Source of the DNA: an uncultured virus (IMG/VR IMGVR_UViG_3300011242_000004)
Lineage: Duplodnaviria > Heunggongvirae > Uroviricota > Caudoviricetes
DNA length: 20,000 bases
IMG/VR virus record: IMGVR_UViG_3300011242_000004
Reading direction: 5' to 3' (one strand)
The notes beneath the pieces were generated by a model. That model was not told the DNA's origin, did not search any database, and worked only from the letters and a program-made list of their open reading frames with translations. Positions 4,261-18,855 of the stretch are shown in pieces. Position numbers and translations under genes: made by a program. How positions within the stretch are numbered: the stretch's first letter is position 1; the number at the start of each line of letters is the position of its first letter.

Positions 4261-4420
4261 CCCTGTATAGGTAGGCCCTCATATGGAGGGGTGCCTATAT
4301 GGGGTGCTGTATATGGGTGCCTCTATATAGGGGTGCCTATAGCAAGGCCTCTATATAAGGCCCTCTATATAAGGGGGTCTATATAGGGGGTACTATATAA
4401 GGCCCCTCTATAGAAGGGGC
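4261..4420. repeat. Tandem array of about 11 degenerate quasi-palindromic 14-bp units (approx. CCTCTATATAAGGG)
   Basis: TATA cores start at 4266, 4280 (CATA), 4296, 4310, 4324, 4338, 4352, 4366, 4380, 4394 and 4409; eight consecutive cores are exactly 14 bp apart. Confidence 0.9.
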
Positions 4421-4468
4421 ATCCAATAAGCCGGAGAAACCGGATGCGGACGAAAGGGGTAATTCCTC

Positions 4469-5080
4469 ATGACAAACTCAACTAAAACAATCCTATCTAC
4501 TACTGCTGTATTCGCAACACCTGCACAAAAACGTGCAGTCGAAGAAAAACAAATCGTAACACCGGTCGAATTTGGGCCAGCTGTAAAATTCCCTTTATAC
4601 GCATTCACAGTAGAAGGGAAAGCAACTCGTGGCGCACAAGTCTTCAATAAACACCATCACTTCTGCCACGTCGGATTAGAAGATTTCAAAGCTGTTCTTC
4701 AAAAATACCGTATCAATAATGCGGTACTTGCACGGATGTTGAATGGCGTCGGCAAAACAACGGCTCGCGAAGGATATGTTTACGTATCCTATGACCAACA
4801 AATCGGATTGCCGAATCCGTATAAAAAAGCGGCGCCGTACCGTAAGGCTTGCCAAGATTACTTGAACGGTTTGCCGCTTTCGACTGTTGTTGTTTCAAGC
4901 AATAAATTGGTGCTGGAATTGGCGTCAAGACGTGGACATCGTGTTCTGCATCGCGACGTCAATTTCGCACGTGTTCATGACATCGAACACACTTGTATCT
5001 ACCGTGGTCGCAACCACAACGCAATGCCTGCTGTTATGTCTCTCTTCTTTGGTTCTAAAGTGAATCTACTTGTTTATTGA
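4469..5080 (+). CDS. Hypothetical basic protein (203 aa) upstream of the RNA polymerase
   Basis: AAAGGGGT RBS; codon usage like the downstream polymerase gene. Confidence 0.85.
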   Translation: MTNSTKTILSTTAVFATPAQKRAVEEKQIVTPVEFGPAVKFPLYAFTVEGKATRGAQVFNKHHHFCHVGLEDFKAVLQKYRINNAVLARMLNGVGKTTAREGYVYVSYDQQIGLPNPYKKAAPYRKACQDYLNGLPLSTVVVSSNKLVLELASRRGHRVLHRDVNFARVHDIEHTCIYRGRNHNAMPAVMSLFFGSKVNLLVY

Positions 5081-5179
5081 AAAACATTTTCTAAGTTCTA
5101 AAAAACTTTCGGTCTTGGCGAGGACCTTAAACTACGACATCGTGGGCGCACTTACGCAAATTGAAAGGGGTAATTAATC

Positions 5180-7975
5180 ATGACAAACGCTAAAAACAAC
5201 AACAACGGAAAACAAAACAAAAAGGGGATGAAACCTATGAAAGCATTAACAATCACTGAACTCGTCAAACAACGTAAAACTATCGTCAAGCACCAAGGTC
5301 CAAAGAAACCATCGTTCAACTTGTCAGCAACAAAATCAGTTTTCGGATTCACACACCCGATGACTGGCGCATTAACAATCTTGAATGACAAAACGCTTCA
5401 GCACTTGTTTGTCAGCGATGACATGAACAATACAAAGTTTAATCCTGCTGTCCGTTTGTTCATGGTGACGGAAGGTTCTACAAAAGTAGAAGATTTCATG
5501 GTCAATGAGAAAACATTGGTTCAGCGTAACTCTGAATCGATGCTTGTACGGGATGCCGCTAAAGTCACAACAGAATTCGACATTATCAAGAAAGACCCGC
5601 TCAACCGTAAACAGATGTTGACGGAGAAGCTTGAGGCCTTTGACAATACACGTCAGCTCAACCTTAAGGTTGCAGATGTCGTTGTCAAACTCAAGAAGTT
5701 ATTTGAATCAAAAGAAGTCAAAGCACGTTTTGGTAATATCGATGCAAAAGACATCAATCATTTCATCAAAGAAGTACTCTTGAATGGTGTCGTGAATCTT
5801 GACTTCGTGAATGGCGATTACGATGTCAAAGTATTCACATTGAATTCAGCGGCACCATCGCAAACTCGTAAGGGTGAAGCGGCTTTCTGGCAGTATGCGG
5901 AACAACGTGGTCTTGCCAACCTCAAGGATTTAATCTTTGATGACGCAAAACGTTCAATCGCTGTTTACGGTCGTTTTGTTTCAACCTACCGTATGAACGA
6001 ATACGGTAAACTCAAATTGAAGCGCGGTAAACGCATCTTCAAGATGGACAAAGAGCCAAAACGTTTGGACATGCCCGCATCAGGTTCGCGGGATTCACAG
6101 GCTTTCAAGTTCCTGTTCGGTAAAATGGTCATCGTCGACCGTTTCCTTTACACGGATGACGAGAAAGAAGCTGGTACTAATATCAAAGTCGTTAAAGAAG
6201 CGATTGTATTAGAATCTTCTTCTTTGATGATGGGTGGCGTCAAACGTCGGGTTCTTATCATTCAAGACCCGATTCGTGAAGTTGAAGCAACGGCGAAAGT
6301 CGTTGAGAAGTACAACACGGAGTCAGGTAAGCCTGAAATCGTGGAAGGGCTTTACAAGTTCCCTAAGAACTTGGTCGATGGTGGTATCTTGGTTTCTGAG
6401 GAAGTGACAGAGTTTATGGTCGCTGAAGGAAACTTGAAGCACAAAGGGCAGTCATTCCAAGGTCGTGGTGTAGCGGGTGTTAAACCATTCGCTTATGGCA
6501 CACCAATGCTTAAAGAGATGACTGGTGTAGACATGGTCTTCATGTCAGGTGCATTAAAACTCGATGTTATCCCATCATTGCTTGATGGTCGCTTCGAGTT
6601 TGCAGTCGTTCAAGGGTCACGTCTTGAGTTTGCTGAAGACATGGCACCGGTAGCAACACAGGCTTTACTTGCGGCTGGTACACCGCAAGAGAACCTTGAA
6701 TTGCTTCACATGATTGCGGCAGGTCGTATCGATGCTTCTATGTACTCAGCGTCAAAAGCTCTCAAGATTCTTGGCATCACAGAGAACTTTGACGAGGAGA
6801 CAATGAAAGTTGTCGAACAAGATGAAGAGTTCGTCGAAGAGTTAGATGGCGAAACAGGTGTGAAAGCGATTCTTCGTAAAGCACCTCACGCTATCAAAGA
6901 TGGTCTTCTCAAAGACCGTCTTATCAACATCATGGCAAAAGCCCTTGAGAAAATCAAGTTGGGCAATGTCCTTGTTGATGACGCTAAAATGCGTCACATG
7001 GGCTTTGACATCTTTATGGTTGTCAAAGCTATCGAATCATTATTTGTTCAACGCAATAAAGGCGTTGAAGTGCCACAGATGGAATGGGTGAACTCTATCC
7101 CAGCTGGTGGTGCAGTTGTTGTTGACGCTTACGGTCGTCTTCGTGCAGGATACTTCCTTGCGATTCGTTACCCAGCATTGAAGAACGAAGAAGTACGCAA
7201 AGTACTAGCGGCTGTTGAGTTTGGTTCAGAAGAAGCACGTCTTTACTACGAACGTGCGGCACAAATGGGCTTCTTCCAAGGCCTTGTGTTGTTTAACTCT
7301 GTTGACATGACGACAGAGGCAATGAGTGGTGCCGATTTTGATGGCGACACTTGCTTGGTTATCTTCAATGCTTTAATGGTTGAACCGTTTGTAAACAAAA
7401 CACCACTTCTCGATTTCTTTATCACTGAGACTGGTGCGCTCGAAGGTGGATGCCCATGGTCTGCACCGGAGGAAGCTGTTGATTTTAAAGCTCACATCAC
7501 AGCACCTGAGGGTCTTGAATTCACGCAAGTGATGGAAAACAACTCTCGTACGTGGGCACTTGAGTTCGACGAAGAAGACGTCAAAAACCGTCCAGCAGAC
7601 GTTTACTATGTCTTCAACCGTGCAGGAGCATTGCACATCGCTGAGACAGCGAAGATTTCTTCAATCGGAACATGGACAAACCGTCTTATGAACGTTGAAG
7701 ATATCCAACTCGAAATCATCGGTGAAATCGGACTTGCACGTCAGCTTCAAGACCGTGCGAAATTCGTTTCTCTTTCGAACGAGTTGGCGTTCTACGATGA
7801 TTTAGCAATGTGGTTAACATGTATCGTTCGTTGGGCAATCGACGAAGCGAAACATGGTGGAGCGTTCAACGGACCACTTGCTCATATCGTCAACATCTTC
7901 GAAGATGCAACATCTCCAACGAAGATGCGTGAAGACCTTGAGAAACATGTCTTCAAAATGGGTCGTATGTTCTAA
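5180..7975 (+). CDS. YonO-like / eukaryotic-RdRP-related two-barrel RNA polymerase, catalytic polypeptide (931 aa)
   Basis: Motifs in the order expected for the cellular RdRP/YonO family: DGGILVS (aa ~400), QGRGVAGVKP (~427), RYP (~663), catalytic SGADFDGD (DFDGD at nt 7334-7348, aa ~719), AIDEAKHG (~886). AAAGGGGT RBS. Confidence 0.88.
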   Translation: MTNAKNNNNGKQNKKGMKPMKALTITELVKQRKTIVKHQGPKKPSFNLSATKSVFGFTHPMTGALTILNDKTLQHLFVSDDMNNTKFNPAVRLFMVTEGSTKVEDFMVNEKTLVQRNSESMLVRDAAKVTTEFDIIKKDPLNRKQMLTEKLEAFDNTRQLNLKVADVVVKLKKLFESKEVKARFGNIDAKDINHFIKEVLLNGVVNLDFVNGDYDVKVFTLNSAAPSQTRKGEAAFWQYAEQRGLANLKDLIFDDAKRSIAVYGRFVSTYRMNEYGKLKLKRGKRIFKMDKEPKRLDMPASGSRDSQAFKFLFGKMVIVDRFLYTDDEKEAGTNIKVVKEAIVLESSSLMMGGVKRRVLIIQDPIREVEATAKVVEKYNTESGKPEIVEGLYKFPKNLVDGGILVSEEVTEFMVAEGNLKHKGQSFQGRGVAGVKPFAYGTPMLKEMTGVDMVFMSGALKLDVIPSLLDGRFEFAVVQGSRLEFAEDMAPVATQALLAAGTPQENLELLHMIAAGRIDASMYSASKALKILGITENFDEETMKVVEQDEEFVEELDGETGVKAILRKAPHAIKDGLLKDRLINIMAKALEKIKLGNVLVDDAKMRHMGFDIFMVVKAIESLFVQRNKGVEVPQMEWVNSIPAGGAVVVDAYGRLRAGYFLAIRYPALKNEEVRKVLAAVEFGSEEARLYYERAAQMGFFQGLVLFNSVDMTTEAMSGADFDGDTCLVIFNALMVEPFVNKTPLLDFFITETGALEGGCPWSAPEEAVDFKAHITAPEGLEFTQVMENNSRTWALEFDEEDVKNRPADVYYVFNRAGALHIAETAKISSIGTWTNRLMNVEDIQLEIIGEIGLARQLQDRAKFVSLSNELAFYDDLAMWLTCIVRWAIDEAKHGGAFNGPLAHIVNIFEDATSPTKMREDLEKHVFKMGRMF

Positions 7976-8000: not shown

Positions 8001-8025
8001 GAGGGGTGAGATGCCCTCTTTTTTT
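8001..8025 (+). terminator. Putative intrinsic terminator
   Basis: GAGGG-N8-CCCTC hairpin followed by T7. Confidence 0.6.
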
Positions 8026-8100
8026 ATGGATTGTTTTACTGCCAATAGGACGGAAAATACCGTATGAGGCCCTGCACATGCAGGAGAATAGGGGAAAATC

Positions 8101-10071
8101 ATGTCTAACACTACTAACACTGCTATCTACAACGTCGCTACAGAAGCTGAAATCGCAAATTCTGTCGGCTTGCCAGAAATGTCAATGGAAGAAGCACGCT
8201 CATTGGCAATCAACGTCTTAAACAGCTCAATGGTGTTGGTTTCATCACAGGAAGCACGTAAGTTTGTCATGGCAGATAAAGAATCTGCACTTAAGCAAGT
8301 AGTTCTTCTCACGCAACAAAAGCTTCGTCTCAAATTCGGACCAAAGATGGACTTCTTCCACGGCGAAGTGGAAAAGGATATTGAATGGTTCCGTGCAACA
8401 GCTGACGAGTTGATTGCAAAAGGTGAGTTGCGTCTCATTCAAGATGTTGATTCTGACATCTTCATGTGGACTGAGAAAGCCCACAAGTTCACGTTCCAAA
8501 TCTTCAAAGGGAAACGTTTCCGTACGTCTCAGTTGATTGTCAAACTTCAGAATGAAGTCACTTTCCGTGATGTTCACAATGAAGCACTTGCTCGTGCAGA
8601 AGCACATGAGACACAGTACAAAAGCAATAAAATGCCGTTGCAACGTCCGGCTTATATTGCGGCTCAAAAAGGAGAAGAAGGTGTTCGTGTTGCACATCGT
8701 CATTCTTCAGTGCAATTGGCAACAGACTTCGCTGGTTTCATTCTTGAAGAGTTGAAAGTCAAGAAAGCAAGTCTTAAACGTTCAATGAACATGTTGAATG
8801 ATTTCATTGCTTTGAAAGACCGTTTTGAAATCTCTGACGATGAGCGTGCACGCTTGTCAGCAGAAGCTAGCACGTTGCTTTCTACTGCTAAAGTAGGGCT
8901 TGATGAAATTCAGTTGGAACGTGACAGCTATAATGAACGTGCACAAATCTTCATGGGTATGAAAACTGTCCATGATACGCATGACTTCAAAGTATTTGTG
9001 GCCAACGAGAAAGCGGCTGGTCGCAAAGTCAACATGGACAAAGCAAAACAACACTTTGCTCTTCCAGTTGGGAAAGTGCTTTGGAAACAAGCGACAGAGG
9101 GGATGCGCAACTCTGCTCGTCGTAAAGCGATGACAACGGCTGAGCTTGACCGTCTTGCTGAGATGAATCTATCTTATACGCAAGAAATGAAAGCACAGAC
9201 GCTTCAAACTGCTCAGAAACTTGAGAAAGAGTTGAAGATGTCAAATGCAACGATGAAATTGGCTATCATTGCCTATATCGATGCATACAACGCTGATAAA
9301 GAAGGTTTGGGCGGTCTCGCTTCAATGTGGGATACGTTCGAAGAAGGATTGTTGATGGCATTGGACGCAATGGCTACTCAAGGCCCTCTCGTTGAGTACA
9401 AACCATCTTCAGCAGAATTGTCGTTCTTCTTTGAACCTGCCATGAACGATATTACGACTATTGAGAAAGCGCATGCTGAATTAACAGCAATGAAAGTTCT
9501 CAACAAAGACGTTAATATCGTTACTGTTGATGGCGAAGTCGGCCTTCAACTTGATGCTGGTTTCTTCCCACTTGAAAAGCAAGAAAAGAAACTCAAGTGG
9601 TTGCCAGCAGGTCGTGACTATGTAGCAAAAGTAACACGCTACAAAAACACGGTCAAAACAGGGATTGCGATGGGGCTCTCAGATATCCGTGCCATCAATG
9701 TGCCTGAAGAAGAAGTGCAAGAAGCAGTCGTCGACCAAGTTGTCGATGGTTACACTGCTGATGCGGATTACGATTGGGCGCAAGAGCCAGCGCCTGATTA
9801 TATCGATGGTCTTTTCTTCGATAACTACGAAGAAGAAACTGTTGAAGCACCACAGCCTGTTGTTCTTGCTCCAACGGAAATCATCGTTGCGACGTTAGAA
9901 CGTAATACTGTTGAAGCTGTTCTTTCTCAACAGTATGAAATGGCAGTATCACCGCTTGGTACGCAAGTCTTCATGCTTCATAACGGACAGCGTATCTTGT
10001 CGTTCACGACGGATGTTCAATTGTCTTCGCTTGACGGTATGCGTCACGATGGCACGAACTTCGTCATCTGA
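8101..10071 (+). CDS. Large protein (656 aa), probable second (C-terminal) subunit of the split RNA polymerase
   Basis: AGGGG RBS. RPAYIAAQKG...HSSVQL (~182), AIIAYIDAY (~388) and SMWDTFEEGLL (~408) resemble the C-terminal motifs of RdRP/YonO enzymes. Acidic C-terminal linker. CDS is certain; function is inferred. Confidence 0.6.
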   Translation: MSNTTNTAIYNVATEAEIANSVGLPEMSMEEARSLAINVLNSSMVLVSSQEARKFVMADKESALKQVVLLTQQKLRLKFGPKMDFFHGEVEKDIEWFRATADELIAKGELRLIQDVDSDIFMWTEKAHKFTFQIFKGKRFRTSQLIVKLQNEVTFRDVHNEALARAEAHETQYKSNKMPLQRPAYIAAQKGEEGVRVAHRHSSVQLATDFAGFILEELKVKKASLKRSMNMLNDFIALKDRFEISDDERARLSAEASTLLSTAKVGLDEIQLERDSYNERAQIFMGMKTVHDTHDFKVFVANEKAAGRKVNMDKAKQHFALPVGKVLWKQATEGMRNSARRKAMTTAELDRLAEMNLSYTQEMKAQTLQTAQKLEKELKMSNATMKLAIIAYIDAYNADKEGLGGLASMWDTFEEGLLMALDAMATQGPLVEYKPSSAELSFFFEPAMNDITTIEKAHAELTAMKVLNKDVNIVTVDGEVGLQLDAGFFPLEKQEKKLKWLPAGRDYVAKVTRYKNTVKTGIAMGLSDIRAINVPEEEVQEAVVDQVVDGYTADADYDWAQEPAPDYIDGLFFDNYEEETVEAPQPVVLAPTEIIVATLERNTVEAVLSQQYEMAVSPLGTQVFMLHNGQRILSFTTDVQLSSLDGMRHDGTNFVI

Positions 10072-10077
10072 TTTAGG

Positions 10078-10106
10078 AAGGCCCTCTTCGGAGGGTCTTT
10101 TGTTTT
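10078..10106 (+). terminator. Intrinsic terminator
   Basis: AAGGCCCTC-TTCG-GAGGGTCTT followed by TTGTTTT. Confidence 0.8.
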
Positions 10107-10149
10107 GTTGTCTGTCACTCAATCCACATACAAAAAGGAGATTATTAAA

Positions 10150-11295: not shown

Positions 11296-11358
11296 GAGCC
11301 GGGCTTTTGCTTAACGTTGGCTATCAGGCCTTCGGCTAGGGGTTTTAACCCCTTACAA

Positions 11359-11380
11359 CCGGAGGCTTCCAGCCTTCTCT
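11359..11380 (+). promoter_or_regulatory. Degenerate copy of the hairpin motif, embedded in a longer stem-loop (11319-11374)
   Basis: CCGGAGGCTTCCAGCCTTCTCT; lacks the TGATT element. Confidence 0.4.
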
Positions 11381-11409
11381 TGCGGTATCACTACTAGAAA
11401 GGAGTGACG

Positions 11410-11646
11410 ATGATGTCACGAGAATTTATTGTTTCTTTGTTACGCTTAGTATTACCGTACCCATTACACTGGTACGAAAGTAAGTCCTTGCACCAATTGA
11501 ACGGAATCTACACGGAATACCGGGGAGCCATTTCCCGGAAACGTGTACAGTTGGCATTTGAAGCCGATGACCGCCGTTTAAAAGAAAAACTGAAGAAAAC
11601 ACCATTCGTTCCTCCGAAAGAGGACAATGGGTTGCCCTTCTTTTAG
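11410..11646 (+). CDS. Small hypothetical protein (78 aa) ending EDNGLPFF
   Basis: AAAGGAG RBS, ATG 11410. Confidence 0.8.
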   Translation: MMSREFIVSLLRLVLPYPLHWYESKSLHQLNGIYTEYRGAISRKRVQLAFEADDRRLKEKLKKTPFVPPKEDNGLPFF

Positions 11647-11666
11647 GGCAAGTTCAAAAACAAAGG

Positions 11667-11696
11667 GCGGAGGACTCCGTCCTTCTTTTGTTGATT
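11667..11696 (+). promoter_or_regulatory. Repeated hairpin motif copy 1 (putative phage RNAP promoter/terminator)
   Basis: GCGGAGGACTCCGTCCTTCTTTTGTTGATT; TGATT starts 25 nt after the first G. Confidence 0.7.
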
Positions 11697-12060
11697 CAAT
11701 GAGGGGAACTTGATTCCAACCAACAGCTCAACTGGTCCTTCGGGATAGAGCCTTCACACCTCATTGAATTGCACCAACATGCAGGTGAAGGTTCTCGCTT
11801 TCCCCCTACTGTCCAGTGGGGGGTTGCGTCATGAGAGCGGTGAACACTTCCGTCTTTGGACATATCCAGCGCTACCCTGATGGGTTCTGGAGAAAAGACG
11901 GTCGTATTACTTCCTACTTGGTAGGAGCACGACATCAGGTCTCCTTTTTGTCCTACCGGATAGGGGATTCGTATTCTATGCGTCGCACAGGGGTGTGCAA
12001 AGTCATAGATAGTAGGTGTTATGTAGCGCGGAGGCTTACCCAACCTCCGGCACATAGCAA
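11694..12060 (+). ncRNA. Putative ~370-nt structured non-coding RNA, family not recognised
   Basis: Perfect 11-bp stem 11694-11704/11759-11769 is crossed by an 11-bp stem 11747-11757/11785-11795 (pseudoknot). Also a cUUCGg hairpin and at least six further consecutive stems. No RBS-supported ORF. Confidence 0.7.
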
Positions 12061-12075
12061 ATACATAGTTAGAAG

Positions 12076-12106
12076 GCGGAGGCCTCCGGGCCTTCTTCTC
12101 TTGATT
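12076..12106 (+). promoter_or_regulatory. Repeated hairpin motif copy 2
   Basis: GCGGAGGCCTCCGGGCCTTCTTCTCTTGATT (spacing 26). Confidence 0.7.
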
Positions 12107-12132
12107 CTATTACATGCAAAGGGGAGATTGAC

Positions 12133-12411
12133 ATGAAAGAAATGAAACTCACGCAATTGGACGAAAGTAAAGCACGTAAGCTTTTACCTGAAGAAATAGC
12201 GGAACTCGATAACGCTGTTGAGAATCATCAAACGATATCGGAACTCAAAGTCATGCATTCGAATGCTGGGTATTATCTAGGGCATACGATTGACCAAGAA
12301 ATTGATGGTCAAGTATTTGAAATGCCTTGGGACCGCGTGACCGACTACTATAAAACGAAAGAAAAAGCGGAGCAAGCGCTTCGGTTCGAACAACTGCATC
12401 AACAAGACTAA
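12133..12411 (+). CDS. Hypothetical phage protein (92 aa)
   Basis: AAAGGGGAG RBS; motif SNAGYYLG...PWDRVTDYY. Confidence 0.85.
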   Translation: MKEMKLTQLDESKARKLLPEEIAELDNAVENHQTISELKVMHSNAGYYLGHTIDQEIDGQVFEMPWDRVTDYYKTKEKAEQALRFEQLHQQD

Positions 12412-12413
12412 AA

Positions 12414-12444
12414 GCGGAGGGCTCCGGCCCTTCTTTCTTTGATT
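12414..12444 (+). promoter_or_regulatory. Repeated hairpin motif copy 3
   Basis: GCGGAGGGCTCCGGCCCTTCTTTCTTTGATT (spacing 26). Confidence 0.7.
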
Positions 12445-12473
12445 ACAACTTTATATGAAAAGGAGCGATTCAC

Positions 12474-12803
12474 ATGTATGAACAAATTGAACGGGAAGTC
12501 GAAATGGACAAATTCTTCCGTCGGGGGAAATACTCAACGAACGTTAACCCGGCGACTGGTGAATTCATCGAGCAACCAGTACTTTCAGCGGATAAGCCTC
12601 ACCGCTGTCATGTCATCAAACGGCTATGCCCGAAAATGACGATGAACACGGATATGGCTACCATCACGCAAGATGTGAAGTTGGCTTATCAAGGAAAACA
12701 GTTTTGGCATACGATTGAACTTGAGACATGTAAACGGGAAGATGTTGCTCGTGTGTATCAACAACATGCTCAACGTTGGCGCCTAGAGGAGGAAAGCAAA
12801 TGA
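12474..12803 (+). CDS. Hypothetical protein (109 aa)
   Basis: AAAGGAG RBS. Confidence 0.8.
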   Translation: MYEQIEREVEMDKFFRRGKYSTNVNPATGEFIEQPVLSADKPHRCHVIKRLCPKMTMNTDMATITQDVKLAYQGKQFWHTIELETCKREDVARVYQQHAQRWRLEEESK

Positions 12804-12979
12804 ACGACCAATTGCTTTTCTTCATGATGGCATCCATGTATCTCGTCTTTTGTGCGTACGTTGTTGGTATCGCGTATATCGCGCGGTACCTTCTGCTTCG
12901 TAATCATTTCAAGTTAGCCTTCTCTAGTTTCTTCGTCGGTGTCGGCGGTCTTATCTTCGTTTTAAATACATTATTCTAA
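12800..12979 (+). CDS. Small membrane protein (59 aa, two hydrophobic segments)
   Basis: GGAGG RBS; ATGA overlap with the previous stop. Confidence 0.75.
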   Translation: MNDQLLFFMMASMYLVFCAYVVGIAYIARYLLLRNHFKLAFSSFFVGVGGLIFVLNTLF

Positions 12980-12990
12980 GGGAGCGATTC

Positions 12991-13179
12991 ATGATGAAAA
13001 AGGTTGGTAAAGTATTACTTAAAGGTGCGATTCTCTATACGTTTGCGATGTATGTCGCCGCCATTAACATCGTCGCTGAAAAACGGAAGACCGACGCTCA
13101 GATTGATAAGCTCACGAAACAATACGAAGCAAGCCAAGCTGGTTTTAAAAAGACACTTAAACAATTGGGGGCTATCTAA
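12991..13179 (+). CDS. Small membrane-anchored protein (62 aa)
   Basis: AAGGGAG RBS; N-terminal hydrophobic helix. Confidence 0.75.
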   Translation: MMKKVGKVLLKGAILYTFAMYVAAINIVAEKRKTDAQIDKLTKQYEASQAGFKKTLKQLGAI

Positions 13180-13454
13180 TGAAATACTTTGATATGCATT
13201 ATAGTATTATTGTAGACCGTCCGCTCGTTGCTGTTTTGCTTAAAAATGGTCAGCGCGGGGTATTCGTTAATAACAATATCTCGTGCATTAACGACTTCGA
13301 TTTCGAGAAGCGTGTCCTCAGCCGTCGTTCGATTGCCGGGAACGTCGATACACGCTACAAGTCTCTTGATGAGGCCGTCGCGGAATATAATGAATCATGT
13401 ATTGAAAGCAAACGTATCATTTCATTCGATATCCTAGAGGAGGCAACAGCATGA
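13179..13454 (+). CDS. Hypothetical protein (91 aa)
   Basis: TAATG coupling with the previous gene; GGGGG RBS. Confidence 0.75.
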   Translation: MKYFDMHYSIIVDRPLVAVLLKNGQRGVFVNNNISCINDFDFEKRVLSRRSIAGNVDTRYKSLDEAVAEYNESCIESKRIISFDILEEATA

Positions 13455-13738
13455 ACACTATCATCCAACCTACTACTACGATTAAACCTCTCCGTCATGA
13501 AGATACGACGGAGACACGCAACTATATCAACATCTATAAAGATGGTGTCCTCTATGAGGGCATCACCGCGATTCGTCAAACGTCTTTTGATAATAATGGA
13601 CATCGTCTTTATGAAGTCTCAGTTGACCCGGAGAAAAAGGTCTTTTACAAACTTCCGTATAGCTTCGATATTCCCTATGAGTTCGAAGGCAAGGACTTAA
13701 ACATGATGATTACGCACGCACGGTTTAAACAACACTGA
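13451..13738 (+). CDS. Hypothetical protein (95 aa)
   Basis: GAGGAGG RBS; ATGA overlap. Confidence 0.8.
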   Translation: MNTIIQPTTTIKPLRHEDTTETRNYINIYKDGVLYEGITAIRQTSFDNNGHRLYEVSVDPEKKVFYKLPYSFDIPYEFEGKDLNMMITHARFKQH

Positions 13739-13762
13739 GGGCCTTCGGGCTCTCTTTTTTTT
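13737..13762 (+). terminator. Intrinsic terminator
   Basis: GAGGGCC-TTCG-GGCTCTC followed by T8. Confidence 0.8.
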
Positions 13763-13813
13763 ATGGACACACATCTCCAGTGGGAACACACATTCAGAAG
13801 GGAGACATATCCA

Positions 13814-14014
13814 ATGTCTACAGTCAGTCTTATTGCCAACCTCATTATTTTTCTCTCCACCCTCTACACCTTATTCTTTTATATTCGTGCCCGTCGGGTT
13901 GTATCAACACATGGAGAAACAGATGCGCGCGTTCGCACTCTCCGTGAAACCAAGAACTACTTCATGATTTGTATCTCTTATTCTGTATTAGTCATTGTGC
14001 TTCAGTTCTTTTAA
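13814..14014 (+). CDS. Small membrane protein (66 aa)
   Basis: AAGGGAG RBS before ATG 13814; two hydrophobic segments. Confidence 0.7.
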   Translation: MSTVSLIANLIIFLSTLYTLFFYIRARRVVSTHGETDARVRTLRETKNYFMICISYSVLVIVLQFF

Positions 14015-14024
14015 AAGATAAAAG

Positions 14025-14054
14025 GCGGAGGCCTCCGGCCCTCTTTTCATGATT
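14025..14054 (+). promoter_or_regulatory. Repeated hairpin motif copy 4
   Basis: GCGGAGGCCTCCGGCCCTCTTTTCATGATT (spacing 25). Confidence 0.7.
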
Positions 14055-14098
14055 CTCAGCGTCTGTAGCCATTCACCTTATAGAAAGGAAGATTATCC

Positions 14099-14404
14099 AT
14101 GGAAGAACAAATCTACGCCTATCAGCACATCCTTAGACACACATCCAAGTTCGATGAAATCACTGTCGGGTTAGCCTCTGTCGTCAACGGACTCGTCAAT
14201 GACCTCATTGCCAAGAATCAGGACTTCATTCGTATGAACAGTGAACAGCGGTTGTATTCAGCTATTGCCAAAGCTCGTATCTTAGAAATGCAATTGGCAT
14301 ACACGATTGATTACAGTCATACGCCGTTGCTTCCAGAGATTCTTCCGCTCGACCCTATCAAGGTCAATGCGCTACAGGAAGAATACGAAGCCCAGTTCCA
14401 ATAA
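14099..14404 (+). CDS. Hypothetical protein (101 aa)
   Basis: AAAGGAAG RBS. Confidence 0.8.
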   Translation: MEEQIYAYQHILRHTSKFDEITVGLASVVNGLVNDLIAKNQDFIRMNSEQRLYSAIAKARILEMQLAYTIDYSHTPLLPEILPLDPIKVNALQEEYEAQFQ

Positions 14405-14445
14405 GAGCCTTCCGGCTCTTACATACCTTAAAGGAGGAGATACTA

Positions 14446-14844
14446 ATGAATGCTTCAAACCGTCTGTTTCATTTAGCACAAGATGCTCTCACCAAACAAA
14501 AAGTCAGCGAGAGAGCCTACTCGATTGCACAAGACTTCATCAAACAAGCAGAGTGGTATGCAAGTAGAGGAGATGACAGTACCGCCTTTATTTGTGACGA
14601 AGAACAGAACTTCAGTGGCTCTCTAACTGAAATTAAAGAGTTGTTGTCTGAAGTCCGAAAAGTTCTTTCCAACGAAGGATTCAAGACGACTTCCTACATG
14701 CACCCTTCTATTATGCAACCGGTCTTGCGAATACATTGGGCGCAACCGAAAGAAAACAGTACATTCGTTATACATGCGGAAACTAAAGATGGAGTAGAAG
14801 CCATCCACCATATGCTTAAGTTTTTACCTGAACTAATCAACTAA
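14446..14844 (+). CDS. Hypothetical protein (132 aa), paralog of the next gene
   Basis: AGGAGG RBS; shares LAQ(D/E)A and L(R/H)I(H/N)WA.P motifs with 14861..15220. Confidence 0.85.
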   Translation: MNASNRLFHLAQDALTKQKVSERAYSIAQDFIKQAEWYASRGDDSTAFICDEEQNFSGSLTEIKELLSEVRKVLSNEGFKTTSYMHPSIMQPVLRIHWAQPKENSTFVIHAETKDGVEAIHHMLKFLPELIN

Positions 14845-14860
14845 ACAGGAGGAGATACTA

Positions 14861-15220
14861 ATGAAAAACGCACAGATGATGTACAAACTCGCGCAGGAAG
14901 CGAAAGCAGAAGAAAAACGGGCAGAGGTCATCAACGCCATCACATTCAAAATCGGTGATATCATCCAAAGCCACGCGAAGAAAGGATTCACGGACATCCG
15001 CATCTCCACAGACAACATGGGCTTTAACCACGACTTCATGTTGAACATGAACAACGTCCACGAACTCATGGCTCATATCAGACAGTTCGGATACGAGGTC
15101 CGTCTTCTGTTGATGGCAGACACCAACGAAATGATTCTTCACATCAACTGGGCTCCGAACCCATTCGAAGAAATGCGTAGAAACTTCGGCAATCCACTTG
15201 ACCTAGACCCTCATTATTAA
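14861..15220 (+). CDS. Hypothetical protein (119 aa), paralog of the previous gene
   Basis: AGGAGG RBS; identical 19-nt initiation region to the previous gene. Confidence 0.85.
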   Translation: MKNAQMMYKLAQEAKAEEKRAEVINAITFKIGDIIQSHAKKGFTDIRISTDNMGFNHDFMLNMNNVHELMAHIRQFGYEVRLLLMADTNEMILHINWAPNPFEEMRRNFGNPLDLDPHY

Positions 15221-15229
15221 AACCGAAGA

Positions 15230-15259
15230 GCGGAGGGCTCCGCCCCTCTTCTCTTGATT
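15230..15259 (+). promoter_or_regulatory. Repeated hairpin motif copy 5
   Basis: GCGGAGGGCTCCGCCCCTCTTCTCTTGATT (spacing 25). Confidence 0.7.
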
Positions 15260-15277
15260 ATGAAAGGAGTGATAGCT

Positions 15278-15778
15278 TTGAAAATTGGTGTCATCGGCAT
15301 GCGTATGCGGAAACACCATCCGTACTATAACCGCAACAGTCCGAAGCTTGATGAAATTTGGAAGTGGCAGGAACAGCACTTGAAAGTCTTAGCGAAAGAA
15401 GGGCATACCTTCTTAATCGGGTGTGCCGACCATTGGGACGCCCGTGCCATGAAATGGTTGTACTACAACGGTCACGCCGACCAGATTCAATTGATTCTTC
15501 CGTTCCCGGGCTTTGGCTCGAAACAAGGGAAGGATTGGCGCACCGTCCGGGAACAACTCGAACACAGAGGACAAGCCACGTATGTCCATCAACAAAGTAC
15601 GTCCGATGAATATCAAATGCTCAACCAACGCAATCGTACCCTTATCAAGGAAAGCGATTGGGTGCTATGGCTATGGGACGGCACACAGACCGACGCCTAT
15701 AGTCATTTAATCTTGAACAAGAAACCGGGCTACTTCTTCCCATGGAAGGAATACGCCCAAAGCCATCAAACGGTTTAA
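15278..15778 (+). CDS. SLOG-superfamily protein (YspA/DUF1273-like)
   Basis: AAAGGAG RBS, TTG start. KIGVIGMR, GCADHWDARA, LILPFPG and RNRTLIKESDWVLWLWDG follow the DUF1273/YspA motif order. Confidence 0.7.
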   Translation: MKIGVIGMRMRKHHPYYNRNSPKLDEIWKWQEQHLKVLAKEGHTFLIGCADHWDARAMKWLYYNGHADQIQLILPFPGFGSKQGKDWRTVREQLEHRGQATYVHQQSTSDEYQMLNQRNRTLIKESDWVLWLWDGTQTDAYSHLILNKKPGYFFPWKEYAQSHQTV

Positions 15779-15828
15779 GCTTACTCATCGTCCATAACTC
15801 AATCATATACTAAAAGGAGACTACTACT

Positions 15829-16197
15829 ATGACTACATCTATTAAACACTTTAACTTCGAGGATACTATGACAATTGAAGGGCAAGGCGTCGTCATCGGC
15901 GCAACCCCTGCTGTCCTCTCTAAAATCAAGGAGTTCGGTCTAAGCGTCTATGAAATCGTAGCGGACTTACAACTCACTGCACCGGAAGCGTTCGACCTTC
16001 CGAACATGACGAACTATGCGGTTATGAATCCGTTCATGGATACGTGCATCCTCGCTAAAGTCTATAGCGACGGCGACAACATCTGCATTGACGCCTTCGA
16101 TGTACGGAACCATATCCCATACGGAAACGTTCGCAATGACGGCACGCAAGGGTATCGCTTAGGCGCTATCCAGAAAGTCTTCACTGTGGTGCAATGA
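15829..16197 (+). CDS. Hypothetical protein (122 aa)
   Basis: AAAGGAG RBS. Confidence 0.85.
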   Translation: MTTSIKHFNFEDTMTIEGQGVVIGATPAVLSKIKEFGLSVYEIVADLQLTAPEAFDLPNMTNYAVMNPFMDTCILAKVYSDGDNICIDAFDVRNHIPYGNVRNDGTQGYRLGAIQKVFTVVQ

Positions 16198-16301
16198 TGA
16201 AACGTAGACATCCGCATTACCACGATATCATGGAAGATATCAGTATCGCCGTCGGCTTATTGTCGATGGCATACTTTACCTTATCGTTCGCATTCCATTA
16301 A
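16194..16301 (+). CDS. Putative 35-aa hydrophobic peptide (not in the ORF track)
   Basis: ATGA overlap with the previous stop; MMKRRHPHYHDIMEDISIAVGLLSMAYFTLSFAFH; fills the gap up to the next motif. Confidence 0.5.
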   Translation: MMKRRHPHYHDIMEDISIAVGLLSMAYFTLSFAFH

Positions 16302-16311
16302 AAACCAAAAA

Positions 16312-16336
16312 GCGGAGGGCTCCGCCCCTCTTCTTA
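16312..16336 (+). promoter_or_regulatory. Repeated hairpin motif copy 6 (no TGATT)
   Basis: GCGGAGGGCTCCGCCCCTCTTCTTA. Confidence 0.6.
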
Positions 16337-16373
16337 TAGGGCTTACTACTTGAATTCAGAGAGGAAGATATCC

Positions 16374-16934
16374 ATGCAATTAAACACATTTGTCCAAGAA
16401 TACTATCAGAACCCAAAAGAGAAGCCACTATTGAAACGTGTCGGTGGCATGCTCCCGGTATCAAAGAACGTCTTCAATGACGAAATCATGCATCAGAAAG
16501 TCGATACCGCCGTCAACGCCATCCACATCCAACAGATTGCTTCCCACTTAGGGATTGAACTGGAAGATGTTCAGCATGCCGCTGTCGAAGTATGTGGCAT
16601 GAAACAAGAAGCGCGTCTGTTCGAGAAGAAAGTCCAAGACTTTGACGCTCGTGAGAATGCGTATATGAACGGTTCTGTCTTAGAGAAGGCACGCCGTTGG
16701 ATTGGTTCTGACCCAGTCGACCCACGCTCTACGGTCAAAGGCGAACAGCAACCTATCATCAATATCCAATTGCCGGAGGAACTCGTCGGCGGAGGCAATC
16801 TCCAAGAACGTGTTCAACGCAATGAACAGGCTATGCAAGAACTCTCGACACAGATGGCTTCTTTACTATCTGCTCTTGAGTCTCAGTTCCAAGCGAAACA
16901 AGCAGAAGCGGAAACTTCTGAAATCAAAGCGTAA
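16374..16934 (+). CDS. Hypothetical protein (186 aa) with C-terminal coiled coil
   Basis: AGAGGAAG RBS before ATG 16374. Confidence 0.85.
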   Translation: MQLNTFVQEYYQNPKEKPLLKRVGGMLPVSKNVFNDEIMHQKVDTAVNAIHIQQIASHLGIELEDVQHAAVEVCGMKQEARLFEKKVQDFDARENAYMNGSVLEKARRWIGSDPVDPRSTVKGEQQPIINIQLPEELVGGGNLQERVQRNEQAMQELSTQMASLLSALESQFQAKQAEAETSEIKA

Positions 16935-16986
16935 GGTTTGCGGGGAGTCTAAGCCCGCTCCCCTTACATATAAGGAGGCCATCCCC

Positions 16987-17172
16987 ATGGCATCAGATGA
17001 ACTAGAACTCGTCAAATCATTCTTGTATCTTATCGGCTTATGTATCATCGCCTTAGGCGCATTGTTCTTGAAAATTGCTCACATCGATAGACGCGTAGTC
17101 GACCACTCTCTGCTATGGGGTGGCGTCATGGCCATCGGTATCATCTTTATTTACAAAGTCAGTCAAATGTAG
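16987..17172 (+). CDS. Small membrane protein (61 aa)
   Basis: AAGGAGG RBS, ATG 16987; two TM-like segments. Confidence 0.8.
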   Translation: MASDELELVKSFLYLIGLCIIALGALFLKIAHIDRRVVDHSLLWGGVMAIGIIFIYKVSQM

Positions 17173-17183
17173 GAGGAAACCTC

Positions 17184-17399
17184 ATGTCCATCTTAGCTGT
17201 CATACTTGTTACATTCTATTTCATCATTCTTTTGAACATGTGGCGCCTGACCTTCAGAGCCTTCAGTAAATGGTGGCGCGTCCGTCACTCGAAAGATAAA
17301 GTCAAACGTTCTTATGCCTTCGATAACTTCTTTCAAGGCATTTGCTTAACAATCTTTGCGACGTTCATGTTTAGCGTCATTGTCTACGAAAACCTTTAA
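17184..17399 (+). CDS. Small membrane protein (71 aa)
   Basis: AGGAGG RBS, ATG 17184; two TM-like segments. Confidence 0.8.
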   Translation: MSILAVILVTFYFIILLNMWRLTFRAFSKWWRVRHSKDKVKRSYAFDNFFQGICLTIFATFMFSVIVYENL

Positions 17400-17401
17400 A
17401 A

Positions 17402-17431
17402 GCGGAGGCGTCCCGCCTTCTTTTCTTGATT
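17402..17431 (+). promoter_or_regulatory. Repeated hairpin motif copy 7
   Basis: GCGGAGGCGTCCCGCCTTCTTTTCTTGATT (spacing 25). Confidence 0.7.
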
Positions 17432-17452
17432 ACTAACAAGGAGGAATGGATT

Positions 17453-17791
17453 ATGCATAAAACACTGAAAGAAGAACATCGCCGGGTAAAGACTCTCCTT
17501 TGGAACAACATCGTGAGTCGTATCAACACCGCTTCAGCCGAAGACTTCACGAAACGTAACACCATCATGGAAGTCAAAGAGTTCTCACTCATGAATGACA
17601 TCAACAACGAATTGCTTGCGGAAGGGAAACCTTCTTTAGGCATGGGCTATGGTGGCACCATGGAAATCAAATGCAACCTTCGTATCCTACGGAATGCCGT
17701 CCCTGATGCCTATCCGATGATGAAGGAGCATACGTACAAAGAACTGTTAGAAGCGCTTCGCCAGCAGGAAGAGAGCATGCAAGAGTTTTAA
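17453..17791 (+). CDS. Hypothetical protein (112 aa)
   Basis: AAGGAGG RBS, ATG 17453. Confidence 0.8.
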   Translation: MHKTLKEEHRRVKTLLWNNIVSRINTASAEDFTKRNTIMEVKEFSLMNDINNELLAEGKPSLGMGYGGTMEIKCNLRILRNAVPDAYPMMKEHTYKELLEALRQQEESMQEF

Positions 17792-17800
17792 ACCTTAAAG

Positions 17801-17830
17801 GCGGAGGCTTCCAGCCTTCTTTTAATGATT
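17801..17830 (+). promoter_or_regulatory. Repeated hairpin motif copy 8
   Basis: GCGGAGGCTTCCAGCCTTCTTTTAATGATT (spacing 25). Confidence 0.7.
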
Positions 17831-17833
17831 AAA

Positions 17834-17895
17834 TGCCGAAACGTCGAGAGACGTCATCTACGGGTAACCCTCCGTAGGTCTGATGATGGCAGGGT
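17834..17895 (+). ncRNA. Type II hammerhead ribozyme
   Basis: Stem II TGCC(17834-37)/GGCA(17888-91); GAAA 17838-41; stem III CGTC-GAGA-GACG; GTC cleavage triplet ending 17855; stem I ATCTACGG/CCGTAGGT; core CTGATGA 17880-86 plus one extra U; loop I ACCC can pair with downstream GGGT (17892-95). Confidence 0.88.
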
Positions 17896-17914
17896 AAGGT
17901 CAAAAACCTTAAAA

Positions 17915-17944
17915 GCGGAGGCTTCCAGCCTTCTTCTGTTGATT
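17915..17944 (+). promoter_or_regulatory. Repeated hairpin motif copy 9
   Basis: GCGGAGGCTTCCAGCCTTCTTCTGTTGATT (spacing 25). Confidence 0.7.
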
Positions 17945-18027
17945 CAGAGGACACTCTATCCTTTCTAGGCATAGGTGAGTCCAATGGGTACAAAATTGTC
18001 CACGCGACGTTAAAAGGAGGAATTATC

Positions 18028-18633
18028 ATGCAACAACAACAAGTCCAAGGTCTCGTACTCGATGACGCATCACTCGAACAATCTCGTGGTCCCCGCTGGT
18101 ACCTCGAAGACCAAAATTCGACGGCGGAAGCTTCGAACGCTAAATTGGGTATCGAGAACATCGTCCTGACGAAAGCGACGACGCAAGCTCAAATTGACGC
18201 GGGTGCCATCGGTCAAGTCGCTCTTCACACGACAATCGGTTCATTCTACATGACTGCTTTCCGTGGAAAGAAAGACCCGGGTTCTGTCCGTCTTGCTTTG
18301 CCTACTCGTCAGTACATCGACAAAGACGGCGTTAAGCAAAATCAGGAACAGTACTCGTTGCGTTCGGCTGTTCGTGCCCAAATCCTGAAATTCGTTCACT
18401 CGAAATGTAAGGAAGCGCAAGTCGCACAACAAGCCCCTGCTGGTCACGCTCAAGCAGAAGCGAATCCGGCTCTTGCCGCACTTGCTGGTCTTGACGCGGA
18501 AACAATCGCCAAACTCGTTGCTCTCTTGGGAGCTTCGGGTGGTGCGGGTGCTCAAGCTCAAGCTCAACCACAAGCTCAGGCTCAAGCTGACGTTTCTTCT
18601 GTTCCACCAATCATCACTGAAGGCGCATTCTAA
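18028..18633 (+). CDS. Putative nucleic-acid-binding protein (SpoVG-like core, Ala/Gln-rich tail)
   Basis: AAAGGAGG RBS. RLALPTRQYIDKDG...RAQILKFV resembles the SpoVG pattern (vAMPSrk..dG...R..I). Low-complexity tail. Function is tentative. Confidence 0.5.
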   Translation: MQQQQVQGLVLDDASLEQSRGPRWYLEDQNSTAEASNAKLGIENIVLTKATTQAQIDAGAIGQVALHTTIGSFYMTAFRGKKDPGSVRLALPTRQYIDKDGVKQNQEQYSLRSAVRAQILKFVHSKCKEAQVAQQAPAGHAQAEANPALAALAGLDAETIAKLVALLGASGGAGAQAQAQPQAQAQADVSSVPPIITEGAF

Positions 18634-18642
18634 GACCAAAGG

Positions 18643-18672
18643 GCGGAGGGCTCCGCCCTTCTCTTTTTGATT
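18643..18672 (+). promoter_or_regulatory. Repeated hairpin motif copy 10
   Basis: GCGGAGGGCTCCGCCCTTCTCTTTTTGATT (spacing 25). Confidence 0.7.
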
Positions 18673-18690
18673 ATTTATCTCAGCTTCCTC

Positions 18691-18763
18691 AACGGAGCGG
18701 GCGTTGTCTACGTGCTAGGAGTCCTTCCCCTACTCCTAATGCGTAGACAGCGTCTGCTCTGTT
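18691..18763 (+). ncRNA. Putative long-hairpin small RNA
   Basis: 32-bp stem with 25 Watson-Crick pairs, 6 G-U pairs and 1 mismatch; 9-nt loop CCTTCCCCT. Confidence 0.65.
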
Positions 18764-18787
18764 TCTATCTTTTAATATTACATACCT

Positions 18788-18855
18788 AGACACATCCGCG
18801 ATGGCTTCCCTGTGGAGCTTTTTCTAAAAAAGCAGAGACACATCCGAGATGGCTT
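18788..18855 (+). repeat. 20-nt direct repeat AGACACATCCG(C/A)GATGGCTT, two copies 48 bp apart
   Basis: Copies at 18788-18807 and 18836-18855, one mismatch. Confidence 0.8.

Follow-up and report, generated by a model that had tools for sequence, protein, structure and literature searches.

What signal is carried by a hairpin element that recurs eleven times, always between genes and always on the same strand, within one block of a viral genome? The question is raised by a window of 20,000 nucleotides (nt), the whole stretch of DNA analysed here, from an uncultured Caudoviricetes virus (IMG/VR record IMGVR_UViG_3300011242_000004). We refer to the repeated ~45-nt element as R1, and to the 931-residue product of the open reading frame (ORF) 5180–7975 on the plus (+) strand, a non-canonical RNA polymerase, as P0001. 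A first reading of the window from its letters, hereafter the original prediction, had proposed that R1 is a phage promoter disguised as a terminator. On the evidence presented below, R1 is most likely the start signal of the phage polymerase and possibly also a stop signal; it would be the first such signal described for a polymerase of this type.

Three phages, all of them represented by fragments, were compared: the window and two relatives, each used as a locus (L001, L002) and as a whole record (G001, G002). G001 comprises 53.7 kb and is 23% complete, and G002 comprises 26.0 kb and is 11% complete, as estimated by CheckV. Because of these completeness values, and because one homologue of P0001 lies on a 237-kb contig, the phage is probably a jumbo phage of roughly 230 kb, of which 20–54 kb are in view for each genome.

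R1 recurs in a single gene block downstream of a polymerase gene

The heptamer GCGGAGG occurs 13 times in the window against an expectation of 1.25, a count reached by none of 200 shuffled sequences. Twelve of the matches are on the + strand, and ten of these, the very ones that the original prediction had listed, carry the full R1 motif. The three further matches are not copies: that at 12028 lies in another hairpin, that at 16789 lies in an ORF, and that at 19970, on the minus strand, was rejected on inspection. A covariance model was trained on 26 copies from the window, L001 and L002, and was run with filters off over these three sequences; the whole records G001 and G002 were searched as well. 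In the window, the model returned exactly 11 full-length matches (42.4–60.5 bits, E-values of 1.5e-7 to 9.6e-12), all intergenic and on the + strand, with starts at 11343–18627 and a total span of 11343–18678. The eleven copies of the original prediction, including a degenerate one at 11359, were thereby recovered; nothing else in the window scored above 14.3 bits.

The degenerate copy 1 (11343–11394, 42.4 bits) carries GCGGTAT in place of TTGATT, and its orthologues in both relatives also have a variant tail. Copy 2 (11651–11702, 57.7 bits) is directly followed by a conserved non-coding RNA of ~375 nt. Copy 3 (12060–12112, 47.1 bits) has a one-base bulge in the 3′ arm and, together with copy 4 (12398–12450, 44.9 bits), brackets ORF 12133–12411. 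Copy 5 (14009–14060) reaches 60.5 bits. Copy 6 (15214–15265, 53.6 bits) has a Shine–Dalgarno sequence 4–5 nt past its TGATT, the shortest leader seen. In copy 7 (16296–16347, 45.3 bits), TATAGGGC stands in for TTGATT, again with a variant tail in both relatives' orthologues. Copy 8 (17386–17437, 53.8 bits) precedes copies 9 (17785–17836, 58.4 bits) and 10 (17899–17948, 55.9 bits), which lie immediately upstream and immediately downstream, respectively, of a hammerhead ribozyme candidate. Copy 11 (18627–18678, 57.4 bits) is the last of the block.

With 12 copies in G001 and 10 in G002, the three phages hold 33 copies, all on the coding strand. They are confined to one block per phage (9 kb in G001, 7 kb in G002), which begins 3–4 kb downstream of the polymerase gene, at 3.4 kb in the window; searching the whole record placed no copy in the remaining ~44 kb of G001. 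The relatives' copies occupy syntenic places, single copies are orthologous between phages, and gene order is for the most part kept. A scan of IMG/VR with a degenerate pattern returned 46 loci, with more than one locus only in G001, and the 40 loci from other IMG/VR contigs scored at most 21.5 bits with the R1 model. Within the sequence searched, R1 is restricted to the clade that bears this polymerase. Against 50,697 phage records, neither window positions 11300–18700 (blastn) nor P0001 (tblastn) gave a match. A CRISPR array was considered and rejected: the spacing is irregular, and the sole CRISPR-repeat match scored 13.9 bits (E 1.5).

R1 combines a covarying hairpin with fixed flanks

R1 reads TYAAA, N4–6, AAGAGCG, GAGG-NN-(TNC)-NN-CC-TTC, TTYTNT and TGATT; that is, a TYAAA box, an AAGAGCG segment, a hairpin, a pyrimidine tract and a terminal TGATT in ~45 nt. 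The original prediction had drawn the hairpin as GGA/TCC closing a GGNN loop. This register did not hold, as its middle pair is broken in 7/7 rows of L001; TCC is instead the 3-nt loop of a GG-NN/NN-CC stem, which closes a T-N-C loop and is extended by GGA/TTC with G·U pairs. In the 26 training sequences, 90.1% of the cells of the seven-pair stem are paired, and the covariation score was not attained by any of 500 shuffles. Compensatory changes affect the two pairs next to the loop, in 5/26 and 7/26 sequences. Folding of 54-nt segments gave minimum free energies of −8.6 to −18.2 kcal/mol.

The two strands are not equivalent. Two lower-stem pairs are G·U in 23 of 52 cells; because these would be A·C on the template strand, all seven pairs can form in transcript sense only. 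A slide control at +1 left 82.5% of cells paired; the lower-stem pairing is partly just a purine-rich arm opposite a pyrimidine-rich arm. On the template strand, only the upper four pairs are Watson–Crick, the lower ones often becoming A·C. Within this upper stem there are just two non-paired cells, C·A and A·C on the + strand, which would be G·T on the template.

The loop is uniform within each phage and differs between phages: TCC in all 11 copies of the window, TAC in 10/12 copies of G001 (ATAC in the other two) and TTC in 10/10 copies of G002. T-N-C is found in 33/33 copies, two of which have the extra A, leaving 31/33 loops of 3 nt. Stem pairs one and two bases from the loop vary freely within each genome. 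Read on the template strand, the loop is 5′-G-N-A-3′, and its closing pair is C:G in 26/33, G:C in 4/33 and T:A in 3/33 copies. This pattern, with the outer loop bases shared by all copies and the middle one particular to each lineage, argues for a reader that acts in trans and co-evolves with R1. Copying of the element within each genome is a less favoured cause of the uniform loops, because it would have homogenised the adjacent pairs too.

The flanks are conserved too. AAGAGCG and TGATT are kept across phages whose polymerases are just 44–62% identical. TGATT lies 15–16 nt from the loop centre in 26 of the 33 copies, with the first conserved purines at +16/+17 and position +11 falling in the T/C tract; in the window, TGATT follows the first G of GCGGAGG by 25–26 nt in nine of ten full copies, as originally described. 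The seven exceptions to the spacing are not random decay, as tail variants are kept among orthologous copies. In each phage, the copy that opens the block has a G-rich tail, GGAAAT in G002 and GGTAT in the other two. Orthologues of the 16312 copy (copy 7) carry TA(T)AGGGC or TACGGG in every phage, and two G002 copies read TGATA. The tail as a whole is a C-interrupted pyrimidine tract. An intrinsic-terminator scan of the + strand passed nine of the 11 window copies; those at 14025 and 11359 failed.

P0001 resembles QDE-1 and YonO

The polymerase gene (5180–7975, +) encodes an SGADFDGD motif, in which an alignment of 18 sequences shows no variation at D719, F720, D721, G722 and D723. The eukaryote-type RdRP family PF05183 is recorded on two of 17 P0001 homologues. 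An AlphaFold model of P0001 (pLDDT 74.7) matched QDE-1 (2j7n) in Foldseek with an E-value of 4.5e-10, a probability of 1.00 and a TM-score of 0.40. It also matched plant RDR2 and, more weakly, the virion polymerase of the crAss-like phage phi14:2 (6vr4, E 6.3e-3); the P23-45-type polymerase chains 8f72 and 8f5m were weak matches (E 0.26 and 0.38). Because of the DFDGD motif, the PF05183 assignments on homologues and the QDE-1-like predicted fold, P0001 is a single-subunit two-barrel RNA polymerase of the QDE-1/YonO clade. A phmmer search of PDB sequences with P0001 returned 0 matches.

Close homologues of P0001 in IMG/VR lie on two contigs only, L001/G001 (62% identity) and L002/G002 (44%), and both carry R1. 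Beyond these, a viral scan with the polymerase alignment gave 10 distant loci with 23–46% identity over short stretches, the best of which, L004, showed no R1-like repeat family. A metagenome scan with the same alignment gave 590 pattern matches, none of them confirmed, and a scan of GTDB genomes with the polymerase gave one 26%-identical relative on a 2.5-kb fragment of a Lachnospiraceae metagenome-assembled genome, which was not used further. Pfam and PHROGs scans found no T7-like polymerase family among the 30 window ORFs and identified almost nothing else in them: one unnamed PHROG and weak YpsA/SLOG and DUF matches. The YpsA/SLOG-family match, on ORF 15278–15778 (+), is itself weak (E 7.7e-6, 26.4 bits, cut-off 27.7), and this ORF is among the very few with a family match.

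Conserved RNA structures begin at or soon after the end of R1

Three conserved non-coding structures start 0–29 nt after TGATT. The first is a structured non-coding RNA of ~375 nt (11693–12059, +) with a counterpart at ~16672–17045 of L002 and 10 compensatory pairs. The two are 84% identical, and ~98% identical over the first 110 nt, while the polymerases of the two phages are 44% identical; the similarity extends over all three frames. The first helix predicted for the RNA, GAUUCAAUGAGG/CCUCAUUGAAUU, opens with the G of the TGATT at 11692 and uses the GATT of the R1 tail. The RNA had no match to Rfam at E ≤ 10, and tblastn detected no counterpart in L001/G001.

The second structure is a candidate type II hammerhead ribozyme (17834–17898, +) between R1 copies 9 and 10. 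It scores 31.5 bits with RF02276 and its L015 counterpart (168–228) scores 33.3 bits, both under the gathering score of 37. All three phages keep an intact core (CGAAAC, GUC and CUGAUGA), with changes between them in stem III. The G001 hammerhead (~34740–34810, L014 stretch) is nearly identical to that of the window, though it is not in the Rfam scan list. In the three phages, the candidate starts 1–15 nt after TGATT, always directly downstream of an R1 copy; the order is R1–hammerhead–R1–gene in the window and G001 and R1–R1–hammerhead–gene in G002. The third structure, a 25-bp hairpin with a T-rich tail (18697–18780, +; 7 compensatory pairs over three phages), closes the R1 block and is either a strong terminator or a small RNA. 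The claim that RNA structures begin at or just after TGATT was thus borne out for the 375-nt RNA, whose first predicted helix departs from TGATT at 11692, and for the hammerhead candidate at 17834–17898.

These junctions bear on where transcripts begin. No other promoter fits ahead of the 375-nt RNA and the hammerhead candidate, because only 0–4 nt separate them from TGATT. At the tightest leaders, those of the copies at 15230 and at L001 18043, the Shine–Dalgarno sequence begins 4–5 nt after TGATT, so any start site should lie at or before approximately TGATT+5, and no downstream −10 box can be accommodated at these two copies. The promoter scan listed no + strand host sigma-A/sigma-70 site overlapping R1. 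A promoter of the SPO1 gp28 type (AGGAGA...TTTNTTT) was also considered and rejected; its spacing does not fit R1.

Could R1 act mainly as RNA within transcripts? It might be a stabilising 5′ hairpin, with transcription starting at the conserved GCG from a promoter in the TYAAA/AAGA box, or a processing or protein-binding site that cuts or marks a long polycistronic RNA, as RNase III sites do in T7 early RNA. Such roles would suit a stem that is complete in + sense only and a lineage-specific loop that an RNA-binding protein could read; the R1 block contains another RNA-cleaving element, the hammerhead candidate, and a G-rich GCGGAGG is a typical initial transcribed sequence for phage polymerases with T7-type promoters. 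We nevertheless regard this possibility as improbable. RNase III substrates have stems far longer than that of R1, every transcript would be in danger of terminating itself at a hairpin and U-tract placed at +8 to +35, the 375-nt RNA has no 5′ leader ahead of its first predicted helix, which opens with the TGATT G, and the GNA loop and C:G closing pair of the template strand would be left unexplained.

R1 copies bound gene units and accompany ordinary terminators

Across the 33 copies, R1 flanks units of one to five genes. Spacing to neighbouring codons was obtained with a script that accepts as an ORF every frame of 40 or more codons between two stops, and a few of these are therefore not real genes. 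The upstream stop codon ends 19–22 nt before the loop centre in 14/33 copies (exactly 20 nt in nine) and 13–14 nt before it in five more, with an overall range of 13–31 nt; the upstream TAA forms part of the TYAAA box or of a TAARAG just ahead of GCG. Downstream, 22 copies are followed by a start codon with a Shine–Dalgarno sequence 37–64 nt from the loop centre. At 16194–16301 (+) lies a likely hydrophobic ORF of 35 codons, which overlaps the stop of ORF 15829–16197, ends in the TYAAA of copy 7 and is kept in L001.

Ordinary terminators are present alongside R1. The original prediction had noted TTCG-loop terminators near 10078 and 13737, and the terminator scan places both: one after ORF 8101–10071 (10076–10111, +; core 10076–10101) and one, with a T8 run, inside the R1 block (13737–13762, +; core 13737–13754). 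A third, a hairpin with a T7 run (8001–8025, +; core 8001–8018), follows the polymerase gene. The polymerase gene and the next gene thus each have an ordinary T-run terminator ahead of the R1 block. In L001, the R1 copies at 17595, 18043 and 20568 lie ~60 nt downstream of ordinary TTCG/T8 terminators and are therefore dispensable for ending the unit before them. A third conserved intergenic motif, tandem ACAYATYC boxes 17–19 nt apart (~45–48 nt in the pairs after the last R1), occurs at 13769–13812 and 18790–18845 (+) of the window, at 17563–17589, 17994–18037 and 20537–20563 of L001, and at counterparts in G001 and G002. The boxes mostly stand right behind T-run terminators, ahead of a gene or an R1 copy.

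Whether R1 is a terminator or attenuator and nothing else has to be weighed against this background. It would then be a conserved RNA hairpin, polymerase-specific or factor-dependent, that stops or meters transcription after each unit, its loop perhaps read by a phage anti-terminator, and the block would be transcribed from a few promoters elsewhere. The A-rich tract, GC hairpin and U-rich tail, the copies that pass the terminator scan and the lower-stem G·U pairs that exist just in RNA sense all agree with termination, as do the stop codons, which precede the loop centre by 13–31 nt and in many cases form part of the TYAAA box; the L001 ACAYATYC boxes between ordinary terminators and R1 could be promoters that feed an R1 attenuator. 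There is also precedent in a conserved 26-nt motif at seven termination sites of the P23-45 virion two-barrel polymerase, and a special signal is plausible because YonO-type enzymes are without the flap domain used in ordinary hairpin termination. On the other side, the hammerhead candidate and the 375-nt RNA lie 0–4 nt past R1 with no other conserved upstream element, such that read-through would be their sole source. A second terminator would be redundant ~60 nt after the T8 terminators of three L001 copies, and the strong 25-bp terminator already stands behind the last copy. An intrinsic terminator needs neither a conserved unpaired GCG nor TGATT. The ordinary terminators of these phages use TTCG tetraloops, and we know of no stabilising role for U-N-C triloops in RNA. 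We therefore hold termination as the only function to be unlikely.

The synteny comparison that had been suggested for motif boundaries shows that gene content does differ there: tblastn gave no match in the two relatives for ORF 12133–12411, between copies 3 and 4, and additional genes separate the R1 copies of L001. Most genes and copies are, however, syntenic over three phages with 44–62% polymerase identity, and the block is best described as stable because orthologous copies are syntenic and even retain their own tail variants. A view of R1 as primarily a recombination joint for gene cassettes, resembling integron attC sites or the PeSLs discussed below, or as the site of some other DNA-binding protein, would draw on the boundary differences and on the recombination shown for PeSLs. 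It appears very improbable to us, given that no recombinase or integrase family emerged from Pfam and PHROGs scans of the 30 window ORFs. R1 is also shorter than attC sites and is without their core sites; shuffling is more likely a by-product of sequence repetition.

A model for R1 as a promoter and terminator cassette

We favour a promoter for the phage's own polymerase as the simplest account of the hairpin, its loop, its flanks and its ties to downstream sequence. This reading follows from a hairpin under selection, a reader-specific loop, flanks at fixed spacing, the tie to downstream units and the terminators that precede some copies. The gene layout resembles that of T7, in which the polymerase gene is followed by an early terminator and then by the phage promoters. 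In its fuller form, which we put at about an even chance, R1 is a composite cassette: a promoter of the phage polymerase whose transcribed hairpin and U-rich tail may also terminate.

We infer each step of the following mechanism from features of the sequence. The GC-rich inverted repeat of R1 would extrude or open, and the template strand would fold into a mini-hairpin with a stable 5′-GNA-3′ triloop. The polymerase, possibly with a cofactor, would read three parts of R1: the loop with its lineage-specific middle base, the flanking AAGAGCG and the pyrimidine tract. Transcription would begin at the first conserved purines past the tract, the G/A of TGATT, ~16–17 nt from the loop centre. When R1 is transcribed from upstream, it would yield a 7-bp RNA hairpin with G·U pairs and a U-rich tail, which may halt or attenuate the transcription that arrives from there. 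R1 copies would thus bound each gene or RNA unit, in the manner of the promoter/terminator cassettes (PeSLs) of T4-like phages. An extruded hairpin is attractive because of the template GNA triloop and the single-strand preference of QDE-1-type enzymes.

A bolder version is put forward tentatively, as something rather less probable than the cassette itself. R1 may be the first promoter class of the QDE-1/YonO/crAss-clade single-subunit two-barrel polymerases, acting as a supercoil-extruded mini-hairpin with a GNA triloop on the template strand; its likeness to the promoters of the N4 virion polymerase, an unrelated, T7-like enzyme, would be convergent. A lineage 'address' that co-evolves with the polymerase would reside in the middle loop base, which on the template is G, T or A in the three phages, and the same transcribed 45 nt would terminate incoming transcription. 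The single-strand preference of the polymerase clade would then be the reason for a hairpin promoter.

Several observations weigh against the promoter reading. With nine of 11 window copies scoring as intrinsic terminators, 'disguised as a terminator' may be the wrong description, and R1 may really terminate as well. The transcript-sense-only pairs of the lower stem point to an RNA-level function for part of the element. Spacing is tighter to the upstream stop than to the downstream start codon, which indicates coupling to the upstream gene. The last copy has a strong hairpin terminator at most ~30 nt downstream, which would neutralise a promoter there and is odd for a pure promoter. The putative start site is placed by spacing, by the first purines and by where downstream RNA structures begin; P0001 is tied to R1 by co-occurrence and position, and another polymerase encoded in the ~230-kb genome may read the element. 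Copying among R1 copies could still have produced uniform loops, which are seen in three genomes only. Lastly, for gp66 of a crAss-like phage, a studied QDE-1-like phage polymerase, a preprint reports no common motif upstream of early transcripts. In sum, the interpretation in the original prediction is partly supported: its promoter half gains from the phage's own polymerase upstream, the restriction of R1 to contigs with that polymerase, the template-strand GNA loop with its C:G closing pair, the abutting RNAs and the L001 copies behind ordinary terminators.

R1 offers a compact candidate signal of ~45 nt in 33 natural variants, with compensatory stems, three lineage-specific loops and two conserved tail variants; together with a single 931-residue enzyme, it makes the start-site question for the QDE-1/YonO clade directly testable in vitro. 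If the promoter is confirmed, DNA-hairpin promoters would be used convergently by two unrelated polymerase families, which would explain how enzymes that prefer single strands transcribe a double-stranded genome, and a new orthogonal polymerase/promoter (possibly also terminator) pair would become available to synthetic biology. Should R1 do no more than terminate, it would remain a rare case of a sequence-specific terminator used with a non-canonical polymerase.

Other conserved elements around the polymerase gene

A 43-nt stretch just 5′ of the polymerase gene is 100% identical in the three phages (window 5111–5153, +; L001 9562; L002 9889). It consists of a GGTC...GACC hairpin plus TTAAACTACGACATCGTGGGCGCACTT and may be a promoter or leader element; a metagenome scan with this stretch found it in two short contigs, neither of which reaches the R1 block. 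A second hairpin motif comprises CCAAYARG, a covarying 4-bp stem (CCGG/CCGG, ACGG/CCGT or CCAG/CTGG) with an A-rich loop, and ATGMGG. It occurs at 4423–4449 and 8042–8069 (+) of the window, at 8874 and 12783 of L001 and at 8692, 9431 and 12872 of L002, 20–35 nt before the start codons of genes around the polymerase gene, including ORF 8101–10071, and may represent another promoter or leader class. The product of ORF 8101–10071 had no usable match in the ESM Atlas. Upstream of ORF 4469–5080, approximately ten tandem 14-bp iterons (CTATATAGGGGTGC-like; 4279–4419, +) are kept in L001 (8713–8871) and are possibly a replication origin or a protein-binding array. Group I intron matches above the Rfam gathering score lie ~9–10 kb upstream of both relatives' polymerase genes, at 154–743 (−) of L001 (65.7 bits) and at 35–380 and 877–1460 (−) of L002 (56 and 91 bits); the window has no such match.

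Comparison with known systems

Intrinsic terminators share with R1 a GC-rich stem-loop followed by a T-rich tract, a position just after stop codons and an A-rich tract upstream. R1 differs in that diverged phages conserve its primary sequence, its loop, the unpaired GCG and TGATT, and in that its tail is interrupted by C. These phages possess ordinary TTCG-loop/T8 terminators as well, in some cases directly ahead of R1.

Among enzymes of the same broad type, the preprint reports that gp66 transcribes single-stranded or denatured DNA and not double-stranded DNA. For YonO, the promoter sequence was left to be determined in a 2017 paper, and a search of full-text literature from 2019 onwards found no later definition. 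In Thermus phage P23-45, the two-barrel polymerases are reported to use conserved promoter motifs, AT-rich and GC-rich. Like the R1 phage, P23-45 encodes a two-barrel polymerase of a single subunit, and in both phages highly conserved motifs recur within an early-type gene block. In P23-45, promoter and 26-nt terminator motifs are separate, whereas one motif is seen in the R1 phage, and the passages on P23-45 do not mention a hairpin; the comparison was made by description, and a likeness at the sequence level may exist.

In DNA structure, R1 resembles the promoters of the N4 virion RNA polymerase. There, a loop 5′G and 3′A and a C:G closing pair are required for extrusion and stability, and in the structure the loop G and A form a sheared pair (PMC4496689). 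R1, like the N4 promoters as they are described there, is a short GC-rich inverted repeat with a 3-nt loop, read as 5′-G-N-A-3′ with C:G closure on the template; its seven pairs, counted in transcript sense, fall within the N4-type stem of 5–7 bp. In both, conserved and freely covarying stem positions stand side by side, the setting is a block of small genes, and the element is specific to a phage-encoded polymerase, in the case of R1 by co-occurrence. The polymerases differ: that of N4 is T7-like and single-subunit (gp50 family), and that beside the R1 block, as judged from the window ORFs, is two-barrel and QDE-1/YonO-like. N4 has three promoters against 10–12 R1 copies per genome. The geometry probably differs too, as the N4 loop centre is at −11, whereas 16–17 nt separate the loop centre of R1 from its first conserved purines. 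R1 also departs from N4 promoters in its long pyrimidine tract, its resemblance to an RNA terminator and its four Watson–Crick template pairs. The N4 analogy that had been offered therefore stands for the DNA determinants of loop and closing pair and fails for the polymerase family, for the hairpin register as first drawn and probably for the spacing. R1 is not a member of the N4 promoter family, since the polymerase family differs and the spacing probably does too.

In overall design, a close parallel is the PeSL (promoter-early stem-loop) of T4-like phages. PeSLs and R1 are both conserved composite intergenic cassettes, repeated around small genes, with a stem-loop containing G-T pairs in a promoter-sized element, an A/T-rich upstream part and gene gain or loss at their boundaries. 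PeSLs carry sigma-70 consensus −35/−10 boxes around the stem-loop and serve the host polymerase, whereas R1 has no overlapping sigma-70-type site and co-occurs with a phage polymerase; unlike PeSLs, the R1 block is largely syntenic and not hyperplastic. R1 is not a PeSL, as it is without sigma-70 boxes; by analogy, it would work like a blend of an N4 promoter and a PeSL.

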